A stretch of 22,520 nucleotides of DNA from Clostridia bacterium (lineage in GTDB: Bacteria > Bacillota > Clostridia > UMGS1883). The notes below the pieces were generated by a model. It was given only the letters and a program-made list of their open reading frames with translations. It was not told where the DNA came from and made no database searches. The stretch is from contig JBJDXJ010000002.1 in NCBI GenBank assembly GCA_051866635.1, forward strand, positions 1 to 22,520, given 5' to 3'. Of this stretch, positions 1,661 through 22,520 are shown one piece after another. The position numbers and the translations under genes are program-made. The first letter of the stretch is position 1. Every line of letters starts with the position of its first letter.

Positions 1661-2860
1661 TCAAAACTCATCAGAGAGCAGAAAATCGGTAAGATGTACA
1701 GTTTTTATTCCATTTTCATTGCCGCAGTAAAGAGAATCGAGGGTTACTATATACTTTGGATAGTTATCCCTTATTTCCATCAAGTTATCGTATTCCCTTG
1801 TGGAATTTTCAGGTATGCTTCTGCACACTTGAACGTAGAGTTTCTCATCTCTTTTCTCGGCAATAAAATCTATCTCTTTTGTTCCGTTCTTACCGACATA
1901 TACATCATATCCCCGACGTTTAAGTTCTAAAAATACAATGTTTTCCATAACAGATGCAACCATTTTTCCATTAAACCCAAACTGTGAATACTTAAATGCA
2001 ACATCGGATAAATAATACTTCTCCTGCGTTTGAAGCACAGATTTTCCTTGCAGATCATATCTTTTACACGGATAAATTATAAAGGCCTCTGCCATCCACT
2101 TAATATAGTTATATACTGTTTCTACAGAAAAACTTCTTTTTTCCCCTTTAAGAAATTTTACAACGCTGTTTGCCGAAAAGGTTTTCCCTATGTTTTCAAC
2201 AATAAACCTCACCACTCTGTCAAACAATTCCTGATCGTTAATTTTGTGCCTTTTTGAAATATCTTTTGTTATAACAGAGGAGTAAATGCCTTCAACAATC
2301 TGATAAGCAGACCTATCATCAAATTTTGATATAGCGATAATTGGGAATCCCCCAAGTCTTATATAGTCTTCCACCTTTTCCCTTCCGAAGGAAGTATCTA
2401 ACATTTTAAATTCCAAAAACTCTCTATATGATAATGTATACACAGGAATTGTTACATATCGTCCTGTCAGATAGGTTGAAATCTCTCCGGACATAAGTTT
2501 TGAGTTTGAGCCTGTAACGTATATATCGCAGTTATCTTCTTCAAGCAGTGTATTTATAACCTTTTCCCAACCGTCAACCTCTTGGACTTCGTCTAAAAAG
2601 AGATAGCATTTCCCCTTATCTGCCACAAAACTCTTTATTTCGTTATACATAGATTTATTTGTTAAATTGTCTTCTGAATTTATATGGCTGTAATTTTTAG
2701 CGAATATATTATCCTTGCTAATGCCCATATTTGCTATTTCATTTTTCATCATTTCCAGTATGGTCGTTTTTCCACATCTGCGGACACCAACAAGAATTTT
2801 TACAAATGGTTTACTTATAAAAGGGCGTATTGCTTTAATATAATCAGGTCTAAGTATCAT
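1661..2860 (-). CDS. ATP-binding protein, AAA_14 + DUF4143 family
   Basis: Walker A GVRRCGKTT, Walker B YLFLDEVQ, YVTGSNS, KYYLSD, and C-terminal MENIVFLEL...EIDFIA...YVQV (PD-(D/E)xK-like) typical of this family. Confidence 0.88.
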   Translation of the reverse strand: MILRPDYIKAIRPFISKPFVKILVGVRRCGKTTILEMMKNEIANMGISKDNIFAKNYSHINSEDNLTNKSMYNEIKSFVADKGKCYLFLDEVQEVDGWEKVINTLLEEDNCDIYVTGSNSKLMSGEISTYLTGRYVTIPVYTLSYREFLEFKMLDTSFGREKVEDYIRLGGFPIIAISKFDDRSAYQIVEGIYSSVITKDISKRHKINDQELFDRVVRFIVENIGKTFSANSVVKFLKGEKRSFSVETVYNYIKWMAEAFIIYPCKRYDLQGKSVLQTQEKYYLSDVAFKYSQFGFNGKMVASVMENIVFLELKRRGYDVYVGKNGTKEIDFIAEKRDEKLYVQVCRSIPENSTREYDNLMEIRDNYPKYIVTLDSLYCGNENGIKTVHLTDFLLSDEF

Positions 2861-2884
2861 AATACTGCCTCCATTCTTATAGTT

Positions 2885-2913
2885 ATTTTACTGCAATCCT
2901 CAAAAAAAATCAA
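2885..2913 (-). promoter_or_regulatory. Putative sigmaA promoter of the AAA ATPase gene
   Basis: Minus strand TTGATT-17-TAAAAT. Confidence 0.5.
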
Positions 2914-2948
2914 TAGTTTTTAACCAAAATAAGAAAAAACTATTGATT
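2908..2948. repeat. Perfect 14-bp inverted repeat (terminator or operator)
   Basis: AATCAATAGTTTTT (2908-2921), 13-nt spacer, AAAAACTATTGATT (2935-2948). Confidence 0.75.
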
Positions 2949-3006
2949 ATTATATATTTTTTATCGAATTTTAGATTAAACTATGTAAAATTAGTGTTTT
3001 TTATAT

Positions 3007-3981
3007 TTATTCCACAAATTTTCCGATAACATTACCAAACTCCCACTTAACACTTTCAGGGGATATAATTTTCATTTTCCCTCCGAATGTAAAAATCCAG
3101 CCGAAAAAGGTGGGGCTTATATCAACATTTGCTGTCACCTTAAAATGGTCATCATCCACCTTTTGTACGAATACGCTTTCGCCGAAACGGTCAATAACAC
3201 TGTTCATCATGGAGTTTTCACACAGAATTTCAACCCTTGTATTTTCACCGCCGTACATGGAAAATATATTTTTTGAATACTCACCTATGTTAAATTTTTC
3301 GCCCATAATTGTTTCTGCTTCGACGCTTGCTTCATCCGAAACTTTAATTTCAGTCATTCTGTCAACACGGAAATGGGTTAAATCATTGTGCTTTGGATAG
3401 TATGATATCAGATAGTAGTTTTCGTCCGATACAGTTAAGCTGTAAGGGCTTACTGTATACTCATTTCCCCCGTTTCTAAACCGCCTTTTTTTATTTGCAT
3501 CATATTCAAAATATTTAAAGGACACCTTTTTATGGCTGTTTATAGCTTCACTCAAGGTGTCAACGCTTCGGTAAATTTCTTCGTTTATACCCTTTATACG
3601 GTCTGCAATAAACACCTGTCGTTGCAATTTATACCCCTGATGCCTTGAAGCTAAGGACTCAATTTTTTTAATAAGCCTTTCGCTTTTTTTCTCGGTAATG
3701 AACTTTGATGCGGAAACACAGTCAACAAGCATCTTAAGCTCAGGAAGTTCAAAATCACGTGACACAATGTAATACCCCTTTGAACTGCTTAATATGTCAA
3801 AACCGAAAAGCTTTAAACTTTCAATATCCGAATATATGCTTTTTCTTTCCGCACTTATCCCACAGCTATCAAGGTAAGTAAGTATTTCCTTCATGCTTGC
3901 AGGATGTTCCTCATCTGTATTTTTCATAAGATAATCACAAAGATACATCGCTTTCAGCTTTTGCATTGGTGCTTTTGCCAT
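3007..3981 (-). CDS. WYL domain transcriptional regulator (wHTH-WYL-WCX)
   Basis: N-terminal QKLKAMYL...TDEEHP...ERKSIYSDI wHTH, VSPYSL...ENYYLISY and FRVDRM WYL motifs; the start is more likely ATG 3981 (GAGGAG RBS 9 nt upstream) than TTG 3990. Confidence 0.88.
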   Translation of the reverse strand: MAKAPMQKLKAMYLCDYLMKNTDEEHPASMKEILTYLDSCGISAERKSIYSDIESLKLFGFDILSSSKGYYIVSRDFELPELKMLVDCVSASKFITEKKSERLIKKIESLASRHQGYKLQRQVFIADRIKGINEEIYRSVDTLSEAINSHKKVSFKYFEYDANKKRRFRNGGNEYTVSPYSLTVSDENYYLISYYPKHNDLTHFRVDRMTEIKVSDEASVEAETIMGEKFNIGEYSKNIFSMYGGENTRVEILCENSMMNSVIDRFGESVFVQKVDDDHFKVTANVDISPTFFGWIFTFGGKMKIISPESVKWEFGNVIGKFVE

Positions 3982-3994
3982 CTCAATCAACTCC

Positions 3995-4543
3995 TCATGC
4001 AGTTAATCTAACTTTTTTATACTGACTGTACGCATTTAAAAATTCCTTTTCAACCTTATTCATATCCATATATTCCACAACAGGTGTTGAACAAAGAATT
4101 GGTGTTTTTTCAAAACAAATGGGGATTGTATGAAGCTTTTTGAATTCATAATATAGCATTGCTTCATCAACAGTTTTAACGAGGCGTTCTTCCTCCTTGG
4201 TCAATGGATAAAGGTTAAACTTTTTCATAATCTTTTCCTGAAAATCCTTTTCGATTTTTTTGTAATCATTAAGTAAGCTTTTTAATGGTGTAGGTATGTC
4301 GCACAAATACGCTTCACTTCCGTCATGAAGCAGTGCCGCAAAGCATACCCTGTCGGAAAATCCTCTCGCCTTTGCTTCACGCATACAGTTTATGCTGTGC
4401 TGTGCCACCGAATAAAAATGAGTAAACTGCCCTGATGCACGAGAAGTCAAACTGAGCCCGTGAGCGATATCCTCAATTTCTATTGCGTTTATATCAACAT
4501 TTTCCATATTAATCATTTTTCCGCTGTTTGTGAAAAAGCTCAT
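3995..4543 (-). CDS. HD-domain phosphohydrolase, YfbR/YfdR-like 5'-deoxynucleotidase family
   Basis: IEDIAHGLS..R..G...FYSVAQHS and ALLHDGSEAYLCDIPTPLK motifs. Confidence 0.85.
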   Translation of the reverse strand: MSFFTNSGKMINMENVDINAIEIEDIAHGLSLTSRASGQFTHFYSVAQHSINCMREAKARGFSDRVCFAALLHDGSEAYLCDIPTPLKSLLNDYKKIEKDFQEKIMKKFNLYPLTKEEERLVKTVDEAMLYYEFKKLHTIPICFEKTPILCSTPVVEYMDMNKVEKEFLNAYSQYKKVRLTA

Positions 4544-21117: not shown

Positions 21118-21669
21118 TCAACCGATTTCATCAATATCAATCTGATATCCTATAATTTCTCCTATTGATTTAACCTTTCCTTTTACAGTTACAACATCAC
21201 CAACGCTCTTTTCAAGAAGGAACGTCTTCTGATCGTCATTTTTTATATAACACATAGCCGTATCAAAATCCCACTCACTTGCATTTGTAGGCTTAATGCT
21301 TATATATTTTCCGTCGCTGTCAAAATTATTAATTCTGCCTTTAACTTCAACATATTTATCCTGATATTCACTTTCAGCCTTCATAGCATTATTTTTTAAG
21401 TCCTTAATCATCATGCCCAAATTAACAGCTTCATATTCAATTACATCTTCTGCCGCACTTGTGGCATTTTCCGTATCTACAGTTGTATTTGTAGTTTTAT
21501 TATCATTTCCACCGCTTGTACCGATAGCAATTATTACAACAACCACAATTGCCCAAAACCACCATTTTTTATAAATAGGCTTTTTGTTCTTTGCACCGCA
21601 ACCGGGACAAGTTTTTGCTGATTTAGCAATCTCATTTCCGCATGATGCACATTTAACCATTTTTCCCAT
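21118..21669 (-). CDS. Zinc-ribbon + single TM + OB-fold (tRNA_anti-like) membrane-anchored protein
   Basis: CASCG...CPGCG ribbon, KKPIYKKWWFW then TM helix, Thr/Asn linker, NAMKAESEYQDKYVEVKG...GDVVTVKG. Confidence 0.8.
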   Translation of the reverse strand: MGKMVKCASCGNEIAKSAKTCPGCGAKNKKPIYKKWWFWAIVVVVIIAIGTSGGNDNKTTNTTVDTENATSAAEDVIEYEAVNLGMMIKDLKNNAMKAESEYQDKYVEVKGRINNFDSDGKYISIKPTNASEWDFDTAMCYIKNDDQKTFLLEKSVGDVVTVKGKVKSIGEIIGYQIDIDEIG

Positions 21670-21746: not shown

Positions 21747-21782
21747 TAGATTAAGTATGATAGAATTATTTAGGTGATGAGA

Positions 21783-21983
21783 ATGATTAGTTATGCACCC
21801 TTTTATGAGACTCTGTTCAAAAAAGGAATTACTGAATATTATCTGATATTTAAGCAAGGTTTTTCTGCCAACACGCTTCACCGCATAAAAAAAGGTGAAG
21901 CAATCAGCACAAAAACACTTGACGCACTCTGTTACGTTCTTGATTGCGAAGTAGAAGATATAATTAAATTTGAAAAAGAATAG
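21783..21983 (+). CDS. Small Cro/C1-type (HTH_26-like) transcriptional regulator
   Basis: MISYAPF...TLHRIKKGEAISTKTLDALCYVLDCEVEDII; AGGTGA RBS favours ATG 21783. Confidence 0.85.
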   Translation: MISYAPFYETLFKKGITEYYLIFKQGFSANTLHRIKKGEAISTKTLDALCYVLDCEVEDIIKFEKE

Positions 21984-22020
21984 CACCCAATTCTGACTGA
22001 CAGAAAGATTGGGTGCTATT
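21979..22020 (+). terminator. Stem-loop terminator after the HTH gene
   Basis: AATAGCACCCAAT...ATTGGGTGCTATT, 13-bp perfect arms. Confidence 0.7.
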
Positions 22021-22113
22021 TTCATTTAGGAAACATAAAGGTTTCGTATTGCGGTATTTATGGAGGATATGTAAATCAACTCCTGACGGTCGTTATAACA
22101 TTTATGTCCATAA

Positions 22114-22287
22114 GTGAAATATCTCGCTTTGCTCGATGTGAAATAATTCCTGTCGAAATTGTGAAATTTGAAACAATTGTTTCAAGTGAAATGAAATACG
22201 CCCTTTAACATTTGCGAAGCAAATATTTCACAGCGAAGCTATTTCACAATGGTTACATTATTTCACACGCCGCAAGGCGTATTTCGT
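22114..22287. repeat. Bipartite heptamer/hairpin array (4x GTGAAAT, then 3x ATTTCAC plus a degenerate ATTTCGT)
   Basis: GTGAAAT at 22114, 22138, 22161, 22186; ATTTCAC at 22225, 22241, 22260; each spacer is a different short hairpin. Confidence 0.85.
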
Positions 22288-22289
22288 TG

Positions 22290-22327: not shown

Positions 22328-22401
22328 TGGAGGCGCCACCCAGATTCGAACTGGGGGTAAAGGCTTTGCAGGCCCGTGCCTTACCACTTGGCCATGGCGC
22401 C
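22328..22401 (-). tRNA. tRNA-Cys (GCA)
   Basis: Minus strand GGCGCCATGGCCAAGTGGTAAGGCACGGGCCT GCA AAGCCTTTACCCCCAGTTCGAATCTGGGTGGCGCCTCCA. Confidence 0.96.
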
Positions 22402-22434
22402 ATACTATATTATATTGTTCTTATGGATAAAATA

Positions 22435-22461
22435 TGCAAAAGACGCTAAACGTCTTTTGCA
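22435..22461 (-). terminator. Stem-loop between tRNA-Gly and tRNA-Cys
   Basis: TGCAAAAGACG-CTAAA-CGTCTTTTGCA, 11-bp perfect arms. Confidence 0.65.
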
Positions 22462-22466
22462 CATCC

Positions 22467-22520
22467 TGGAGCGGAAGACGAGATTCGAACTCGCGACGTT
22501 CACCTTGGCAAGGTGACGCT
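22467..22520 (-). tRNA. tRNA-Gly (GCC), 5' part outside the window
   Basis: Minus strand ...TCACC TT GCC AA GGTGA...GTTCGAATC...TTCCGCTCCA. Confidence 0.92.

Follow-up and report, generated by a model that had tools for sequence, protein, structure and literature searches.

Gut-1 RNA motif as one half of a bipartite heptamer array that follows tRNA genes and precedes PF05635 genes in gut Clostridia

Introduction

Gut-1 (Rfam RF01706) was described by Weinberg et al. in 2010 from human gut sequence only, with no function assigned, and the main text of that article places it among the likely non-coding RNAs without mRNA affiliation (PMC2864571). Rfam gives it the type 'Gene; sRNA', and the motif has been an orphan since 2010. 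Here we analyse an array of short repeats and hairpins downstream of a tRNA-Cys gene in a 22,520-nt stretch of DNA from a Clostridia bacterium (assembly GCA_051866635.1, contig JBJDXJ010000002.1, positions 1 to 22,520), referred to below as the window. We find that Gut-1 is one half of a larger bipartite element, of which the window holds a copy without a gene, and that the complete form of the element stands directly upstream of a gene of the PF05635 family.

PF05635 is the family of the 23S rRNA intervening-sequence protein, an Avd-like four-helix bundle, and Avd works with a structured RNA. Such intervening-sequence or Avd-like proteins are common, and they are unexplained outside diversity-generating retroelements. 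Two further structured RNAs of unassigned function, ROOL and GOLLD, often adjoin tRNA genes, both in Firmicutes and in the phages that infect them. The resemblance of PF05635 to Avd of diversity-generating retroelements is noted in one account (PMC10053308). For Coxiella, the description of the intervening sequence places the S23p open reading frame (ORF) in a loop whose terminal inverted repeats pair into a 28-bp stem that is cleaved by RNase III, and characterises this sequence as selfish and sporadically distributed (PMC4990558).

Results and discussion

The window array contains Gut-1 and a complementary second half

The array consists of two convergent matches to RF01706. The match on the minus strand (22220-22289) scores 55.5 bits, above the gathering cut-off of 50, and the match on the plus strand (22112-22197) scores 43 bits, below that cut-off. 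Aligned to the model, the minus-strand half shows the three hairpins separated by GUGAAAU that characterise Gut-1, and its carrier, like those of the motif, is a gut-derived uncultivated member of the Clostridia. An earlier note on this DNA, made from the letters alone, had treated the array as unexplained and had named a match to a described Rfam family as one outcome that would refute its reading; this applies in part, with the right half being such a match and the left half staying under the cut-off. The 77-position Rfam model, however, spans one half only, and neither the model nor the main text of the 2010 article (PMC2864571) includes the complementary second half, the long-range helix P1 described below, the position after a tRNA gene or the PF05635 neighbour. 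A literature search, outside which Additional file 1 of the 2010 article fell, returned no paper that ties Gut-1 to tRNA genes or to PF05635. At the element loci Rfam matched only Gut-1 and tRNA or tmRNA, which also sets the element apart from ROOL and GOLLD. The whole bipartite element is not covered by the Gut-1 model: the motif itself is known, and what is new is the larger architecture and the genetic partner.

Copies of GTGAAAT begin, on the plus strand, at 22114, 22138, 22161 and 22186 (spacing 24/23/25) and those of ATTTCAC at 22225, 22241 and 22260 (spacing 16/19), with ATTTCGT at 22281-22287. These heptamers, the self-complementarity of the spacers between them and the position of the array downstream of tRNA-Cys were all read correctly in the earlier note. 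The spacers are small hairpins of 9-19 nt, so that each unit of the repeat combines a 7-nt heptamer with a hairpin that varies. CRISPR, with repeats of about 23-50 nt and unique non-palindromic spacers, was rejected because the repeats are only 7 nt long, as had been argued before. The array is not a chance cluster: all eight heptamer clusters (at least three heptamers spaced by 60 nt or less) in the 2.33-Mb genome (39% G+C) are copies of the element. The region folds with z-scores of -5.1 on the plus and -6.9 on the minus strand, and none of 200 shuffled sequences was equally stable.

The element reads 5' to 3' on the minus strand, which is also the strand of tRNA-Cys, and measures about 175 nt, or about 215 nt once the 5' hairpin is counted. 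It follows the 3' CCA of the tRNA-Cys (GCA) gene (22328-22401, minus; ARAGORN, Rfam tRNA 60.7 bits) and begins with the hairpin P0 (22289-22327, minus; inverted repeat I2, 18-nt arms, 94%), which is preceded by an A tract and followed by a T tract. P0 belongs to the repeated unit, CCA-GAAAAAACG...CGTTTTTTC, and the same frame with varying stems recurs after other tRNA genes. It is terminator-like and could act in both directions.

All further parts lie on the minus strand. The short-spacing half, the canonical Gut-1 motif, runs through H1 (ACGAAAT, 22281-22287), hp1 (22267-22280), H2 (22260-22266), hp2 (22248-22259), H3 (22241-22247), hp3 (22232-22240) and H4 (22225-22231), after which the Gut-1 match ends at the start of hp4 (22210-22224). 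A linker, GTTAAAG (22203-22209), leads to the distal X' (GGCGT, 22198-22202), which pairs with the 5' arm of hp1 and forms part of the 3' strand of P1 (GGCGTATTTC, 22193-22202; inverted repeat I8), whose partner GAAATACGCC lies at 22276-22285. The long-spacing half (22114-22192), corresponding to the sub-threshold plus-strand match, has the heptamer ATTTCAC as R1 (22186-22192), R2 (22161-22167), R3 (22138-22144) and R4 (22114-22120), separated by HP5 (22168-22185), HP6 (22145-22160) and HP7 (22121-22137). The window element is thus ordered as P0, ACGAAAT and three GTGAAAT with short hairpins, the linker, and ATTTC and four ATTTCAC with longer hairpins, which gives four forward and five reverse heptamers when ATTTC is included.

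The flank after R4 (22060-22113, minus) aligns weakly with the promoter, ribosome-binding site and start region before the PF05635 gene at another locus, L022 (local alignment score 33, next best locus 24), with a 10-nt gap and ATC in place of the ATG of L022. No ORF follows R4. Because of this weak alignment and the missing ORF we regard the window copy as an ordinary gene-less, or solo, member of the family. A degenerate repeat unit had been suspected near 22071; there is no heptamer at that place, which falls within the region aligning weakly with the L022 promoter and ribosome-binding site. Beyond the flank lies a perfect hairpin (21979-22020; inverted repeat I7, 13-nt arms, 100%), shared with a convergent HTH_26 gene; any transcript running through the element would probably have its 3' end at this hairpin. 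The earlier suggestion of terminators on both sides agrees with the direct reading of both flanking hairpins, P0 and that at 21979-22020, each with a run of T after it; a simple terminator scan called neither of them.

Compensatory changes support two mutually exclusive helices

Covariation was counted on A1, a MAFFT alignment of 35 sequences, and on a hairpin-aware parse, with no whole-element covariance model. The parser was used since reverse heptamers also sit inside hairpins, and it yielded 34 fully parsed elements. Because some rows of A1 have register shifts in H3 and H4, only P1 and hp1 were counted on that alignment. Every copy, read in the direction that puts the high-scoring, short-spacing half ahead of the other, has the order P0; AACGAAAT; hp1 (X-loop-X'); GTGAAAT-hp2-GTGAAAT-hp3-GTGAAAT-hp4; a short purine-rich linker; X' again; ATTTC (R0); and ATTTCAC-HP5-ATTTCAC-HP6-ATTTCAC-HP7-ATTTCAC. 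The order of the two halves and the distance between them are fixed at 6 of the 9 loci in the genome of the window and in the 34 parsed elements.

The hairpins keep their structure and not their sequence, as the earlier note had proposed: in 26-29 elements, 17-26 different sequences occur at each position, and Watson-Crick pairs make up 919 of 1008 stem cells. The heptamers also vary. The genome of the window has the classes GTGAAAT/ATTTCAC and GCGATAT/ATATCGC, and its relatives add GCTAAAT/ATTTAGC, GTGGTAT/ATACCAC, ATGAAGN/NCTTCAT and ACATCAT/ATGATGT; in every class the forward and reverse heptamers change as complementary sets, which bears out the complementarity first noticed in the window. 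H1 and R0 covary in the same manner (ACGAAAT/ATTTC, ACGATAT/ATATC, ACTAAAT/ATTTA).

P1 is formed by GAAAT and the 5' arm of hp1, paired with X' and ATTTC just before the first ATTTCAC, and is 10-15 bp long in 28 of 29 elements. On A1 it comprises 10 bp with 99.1% of 350 cells paired and two-sided changes at 7 of 10 pairs, a result that none of 500 shuffles equalled. For hp1, 100% of cells were paired on the same alignment, with two-sided changes at all five pairs. Since P1 and hp1 share the 5' arm they cannot coexist, and since both covary the element has two mutually exclusive conserved helices.

Several features bear on the strand that folds. Read on the tRNA strand, the stems contain G-U over A-C combinations at 29 to 8. 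In the long half 33 of 47 internal mismatches are G.A or A.G, and 66 of 101 loops are of the G..A type (GNA or GNRA-like). The loop repertoires of the two halves are reverse complements overall (UUC 25, GAA 21). Loop-loop 'kissing' between the halves was considered and dropped, as the loops, compared by eye, do not match within the window or within L022.

We modelled a ladder state, with hp1 formed and H4:R1, H3:R2, H2:R3 and H1:R4 paired, next to the P1 state. The median energies over the 34 elements were almost equal, at -54.8 and -54.0 kcal/mol, respectively, and both states came to -47.8 kcal/mol in the window.

Elements follow tRNA and tmRNA genes in gut Clostridia

The element occurs in multiple copies and has homologues. 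The genome of the window (G000 in our numbering of genomes; C and L denote contigs and loci) has about 12 arrays, with 15 Gut-1 matches at 9 loci and convergent pairs at 6 of these; four of its elements belong to the GCGATAT/ATATCGC class. Gut-1 matches occur in 24 of 41 related genomes, with up to 41 in one genome. Public loci with genuine elements come from Clostridia, Eubacteriales, Oscillospiraceae, Ruminococcaceae, Acutalibacteraceae, Christensenellaceae and Faecousia metagenome-assembled genomes (MAGs) of human and animal guts, and one further genuine element is labelled Bacteroidaceae; pattern matches in other phyla are simple tandem repeats. Among 119 stretches of viral contigs with the GTGAAAT pattern, 7 hold genuine elements, mostly after a tRNA-type 3' end (CCA and hairpin), and these stretches give no hint of a phage-specific element.

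The check for an association with tRNA 3' ends that the earlier note had called for was positive. In G000 the element stands directly after seven different tRNA genes in the arrangement CCA, GAAAAAACG...CGTTTTTTC, array: Cys-GCA, Leu-TAG, Asn-GTT, Glu-TTC, Leu-CAG, Arg-CCG and, with the GCGATAT class, Arg-CCT. When 53 parsed elements with at least 123 nt of upstream sequence were taken together (own genome, relatives and public MAGs), 33 were separated by 25-48 nt from a complete upstream tRNA gene on their own strand, and these tRNA genes covered 22 different anticodons. A T tract just before H1 is present in 43 of 55 elements. The host gene can also be that of tmRNA, as at L454 (G026:C18), where a GCTAAAT-class array and a PF05635 gene follow it (Rfam tmRNA 152.7 bits).

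Other arrangements of heptamers and elements were seen in the same setting. Many other tRNA genes of G000 are followed, after a terminator, by tandem TATTCAC, TATTCAT or TATTAAC heptamers without hairpin spacers (contigs C1, C5, C6, C14, C16, C54, C58 and C63; tRNA-Leu, Pro, Gln, Lys and Asp). Among the relatives, such spacerless arrays stand after tRNA-Cys in G027 and G029 and before the PF05635 genes of L461, L464, L467, L470 and L472. At L411 (G031:C157), which has tandem elements, the last 18 nt of the tRNA-Leu ahead of the first copy recur before the second copy, and at L415 (G014:C33) two full elements lie between tRNA-Lys and a single PF05635 gene. Two GCGATAT-class elements of G000 have mobile-looking contexts: L146 (C26, about 3000-3270) lies directly downstream of a rolling-circle Rep ORF (REP_ORF2-G2P match), and L148 (C41, about 3000-3170) beside YopX-like and Myb-like ORFs.

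The complete form carries a PF05635 gene

ORFs that begin M(A/K)E(S/N)KL... lie 50-120 nt after many of the arrays, on the same strand, and all six that we tested match PF05635 (E 1e-8 to 4e-21). The complete form of the family is therefore an array directly upstream of a PF05635 gene, after a tRNA or tmRNA gene, in gut Clostridia. At least 13 of 77 PF05635 matches have Gut-1 within 470 nt upstream on the same strand, among the matches listed (150 of 279 for Gut-1). A 6-mer that occurs, together with its reverse complement, at least five times in the 300 nt upstream was found at 19 of 29 PF05635 loci of the relatives and in 6 of 127 control windows. Inspected by eye, these loci include 14 at which the arrays are bipartite and hairpin-spaced and 5 with tandem TATTCAT...ATGAATA after a tRNA gene. 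Across the same 41 genomes, Gut-1 and PF05635 are both present in 23 and both absent in 14; one genome has Gut-1 only (G032) and three have PF05635 only (G011, G037, G039). Both are jointly missing from single genomes of three genera (G005, G015, G028). At the three loci that were scanned for promoters (L456, L474, L480) the sole promoter-like site (10/12, with a perfect TATAAT) immediately precedes P0 on the strand of the element, which places the array between that site and the start codon, as the 5' leader of the gene.

The only PF05635 gene of G000 (C58:423-818) stands after tRNA-Pro, a terminator and TATTCA/TGAATA heptamers. Its surroundings (L461) contain a 239-nt direct repeat (185-423 and 961-1199, 97% identical) whose start lies 46 nt inside tRNA-Pro-GGG; the PF05635 gene comes after the first copy, and the second, 776 nt later, is gene-less and leads directly into the terminator of that gene. 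The closest solved relative of the encoded protein is PDB 2rld (E 1.2e-35), an entry with 5 chains.

That Gut-1 is an independent trans-acting small RNA, functionally unrelated to tRNA or PF05635, with the second half being a separate convergent copy, would agree with its type in Rfam, with its place among the non-coding RNAs without mRNA affiliation in the main text of Weinberg et al. (PMC2864571) and with solo copies far outnumbering PF05635 genes (about 12 arrays to 1 gene in G000). Separate copies, however, would not account for the fixed order and distance of the halves, for the conserved P1 that ties them together or for the G-U bias that places both on one strand; the strong linkage to tRNA genes and PF05635 also speaks against independence, and neither a promoter nor a target of such an RNA is known. 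We consider this explanation the least probable of those weighed here.

The element also shows presence-absence polymorphism. At the orthologous tRNA-Cys gene it is present in G009 and absent in G002, of the same genus, as well as in G011, G013 and G015; in G026, G034, G027, G029 and G030 other heptamer arrays stand there instead. Near-identical paralogues exist in G000, where the copies on C4, C12 and C49 have their hairpins in common, as do those on C2, C30 and C46. The element could be a small mobile or recombining DNA cassette, either carrying the PF05635 gene or lacking it, whose point of entry is the 3' end or flank of a tRNA or tmRNA gene; its inverted heptamers would then be terminal inverted repeats and the solo copies MITE-like or deletion derivatives. 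Besides copy number, paralogy and the presence-absence pattern, this reading draws on the tRNA 3' fragments repeated before second copies (18 nt at L411, the 239-nt repeat on C58), on the mirror design of the two halves, and on one copy by a rolling-circle Rep-like ORF and another in a phage-like region. A MITE would have terminal inverted repeats, a target-site duplication, many copies and an autonomous partner; the element offers sets of inverted heptamers, multiple copies and a form that carries a gene. Neither a transposase or integrase in or beside the cassettes examined nor a target-site duplication was found, the inverted heptamers vary between elements in a way not expected of sites for one conserved enzyme, and the C58 repeats can be explained by homologous recombination. 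A folded single strand is indicated instead by the G-U bias of 29 to 8, by tandem G.A pairs and by two conserved helices that compete. On balance we think a DNA-level cassette unlikely, although it is the strongest of the alternatives.

The earlier note had offered a REP/REPIN-like element with RAYT as one such non-autonomous form. Like REP, BIME and REPIN sequences, the elements are multi-copy, extragenic, hairpin-forming and often close to terminators, but they lack the 20-40-nt GTAG-type palindrome and have the heptamer and variable hairpin as their unit. The two Y1 (PF01797) matches of the genome, at C46:95288 (broken by a stop) and C38:210807 (weak), are far from any element, and we rejected this candidate. 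The note's more general terms, 'non-autonomous element' and 'multimeric protein-binding array', may still apply, with the PF05635 four-helix-bundle gene now the candidate partner.

PF05635 genes of other phyla are flanked by inverted heptamer arrays

Four genomes of other phyla, reached via chance pattern matches, provided a further set of PF05635 loci (L481-L510; G041, G042, G044 and G045, which include a Chlorobi MAG and a Bacteroidales MAG). Here tandem 7-8-nt repeats are inverted across the ORF, and their sequence is specific to the locus; at one locus, for example, AGGCAGT is repeated upstream and ACTGCCT downstream. When the 250 nt on the upstream side were compared with the reverse-complemented 250 nt on the downstream side, at least two distinct 9-mers were shared at 21 of 29 loci, compared with 79 of 812 mismatched locus pairs and 12 of 29 loci in direct orientation; 9-mers were chosen because about 3.6 shared 7-mers arise by chance alone. 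These inverted arrays around the ORF mirror the published rRNA intervening sequences.

In the Chlorobi MAG, GTGAAAT is repeated in tandem seven times, 60 nt before a PF05635 gene. The element could also be an array of sites in duplex DNA for a multimeric protein (PF05635 or another), serving as an operator or insulator beside highly transcribed stable-RNA genes, a reading that these tandem repeats fit. ATTTCAC is, moreover, the box A heptamer of P1 parS. Identical heptamers in both orientations within an element, the tandem-heptamer variants and several Gut-1-type copies lying upstream of the gene's own promoter-like site, and the five chains of PDB 2rld all fit such binding. Compensatory hairpin spacers and a G-U bias, on the other hand, have no role in duplex DNA, nor does the covariation of P1 and hp1, and the heptamers of L450, which differ within one element, do not fit a single specificity. 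We judge a duplex binding array improbable, and only slightly less so than the independent small RNA.

A proposed mechanism

The element resembles the rRNA intervening sequences of Coxiella (and of Leptospira, as cited in that account) in that its gene-bearing copies have the same protein family attached, and in combining stem-capable complementary sequences with a stable-RNA host gene (PMC4990558). It differs in that both complementary sets are upstream of the ORF and are interrupted by hairpins, that it occupies the 3' flank of tRNA or tmRNA genes and not helix 25 or 45 of 23S rRNA, and that many copies, that of the window included, have no ORF. The element thus fails the defining features of true rRNA intervening sequences, yet seems to work alike. 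As for systems built on Avd, the bAvd Pfam model gave weak sub-threshold matches (E 0.0018 and 0.0092), but neither a reverse transcriptase nor template and variable repeats lie beside the cassettes; the single reverse transcriptase match of the genome (C19) and its single PF05635 gene (C58) are on different contigs.

We propose that the element acts as RNA, transcribed on the tRNA strand. Forward and reverse heptamers would pair in cis into a ladder of four 7-bp helices with four-way junctions between them, and P1 (H1 and X with X' and R0) would open this ladder and expose the heptamers. The paired form would resemble the terminal stem of PF05635-bearing rRNA intervening sequences and offer a double-stranded, RNase III-type processing site, at which cleavage could separate the cassette from the upstream stable RNA; the genome encodes RNase III. 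The open form would present repeated single-stranded heptamers to a multimeric PF05635 protein. This explanation, an RNA whose heptamer sets pair, with a processing or protein-binding role like that of intervening sequences and with P1 as the competing helix, has the best support of those considered, and we put about even weight on it. The identity of the element, its architecture, its covariation and its links to tRNA genes and to PF05635 are demonstrated, whereas the mechanistic steps (transcription of the window copy, pairing in cis, RNase III cleavage and protein binding) are inferred.

A number of observations weigh against this proposal. P0 resembles an intrinsic terminator, which should stop most transcription coming from the tRNA gene, and no promoter is evident for the window copy. 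At L022, L415, L427, L461 and L466 a promoter-like sequence, recognised by eye, lies between the array and the gene, which leaves the array outside the 5' untranslated region there. A ladder with four-way junctions is atypical as a substrate of RNase III, and the unconstrained minimum-energy folds are lower than both the ladder and the P1 state. When the pairing order of the heptamers was compared in the 34 elements, nested, same-order and offset schemes all beat the shuffled null, at the level of heptamer class only, and none stood out; at L434 heptamers change without compensation. The short-half loops are of the U..C type in 80 of 107 hairpins, the mirror image of the long half and G..A on the other strand; this mirror design counts against an RNA because a two-fold symmetric DNA site would predict the same. 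The co-occurrence of Gut-1 and PF05635 is suggestive and does not amount to a formal test, because related genomes are not independent.

More tentatively, and with less confidence than we have in the RNA mechanism itself, Gut-1 may be half of a switchable 'heptamer ladder' RNA that marks widespread, undescribed selfish PF05635 cassettes on stable-RNA genes. Such cassettes would sit on tRNA and tmRNA 3' flanks in gut Clostridia and in 23S rRNA helices elsewhere, bounded by element-specific inverted arrays of 7-nt repeats. Pairing of the arrays would make a processing stem that frees the host RNA, and a multimeric protein would read the repeated heptamers once the stem is open. Solo arrays could be surviving, still-folded remnants or trans-acting partners. 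Taken by itself, the window yields a modest result, namely a member of a recognisable family that lacks the gene. The two-state structure of Gut-1, its site after tRNA genes and its tie to PF05635 nevertheless turn two unknowns into one testable system, with a bearing on how selfish cassettes settle harmlessly in stable-RNA genes and on what Avd-like proteins recognise.

Neighbourhood of the element in the window

The HTH_26 gene that converges on the element and shares its hairpin encodes a 69-aa protein (21774-21983, plus; E 7e-12). Also adjoining the element is a gene for a protein with a zinc ribbon and a tRNA_anti-like (OB-fold) domain (21118-21669, minus). On the other side of tRNA-Cys, a hairpin at 22432-22464 separates it from a second tRNA gene (22470-22520, minus; Rfam tRNA 34.3 bits), whose 5' end is cut by the window edge. 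No integrase or transposase was found in the window. Its genes for SpoIVA and the germination protease place its source among the spore-forming Firmicutes. Farther away, adjacent genes at 1661-4543 on the minus strand encode an AAA_14/DUF4143 ATPase, a WYL-domain protein and a 182-aa ORF without a family, a trio that may be a small regulatory or defence-like module.

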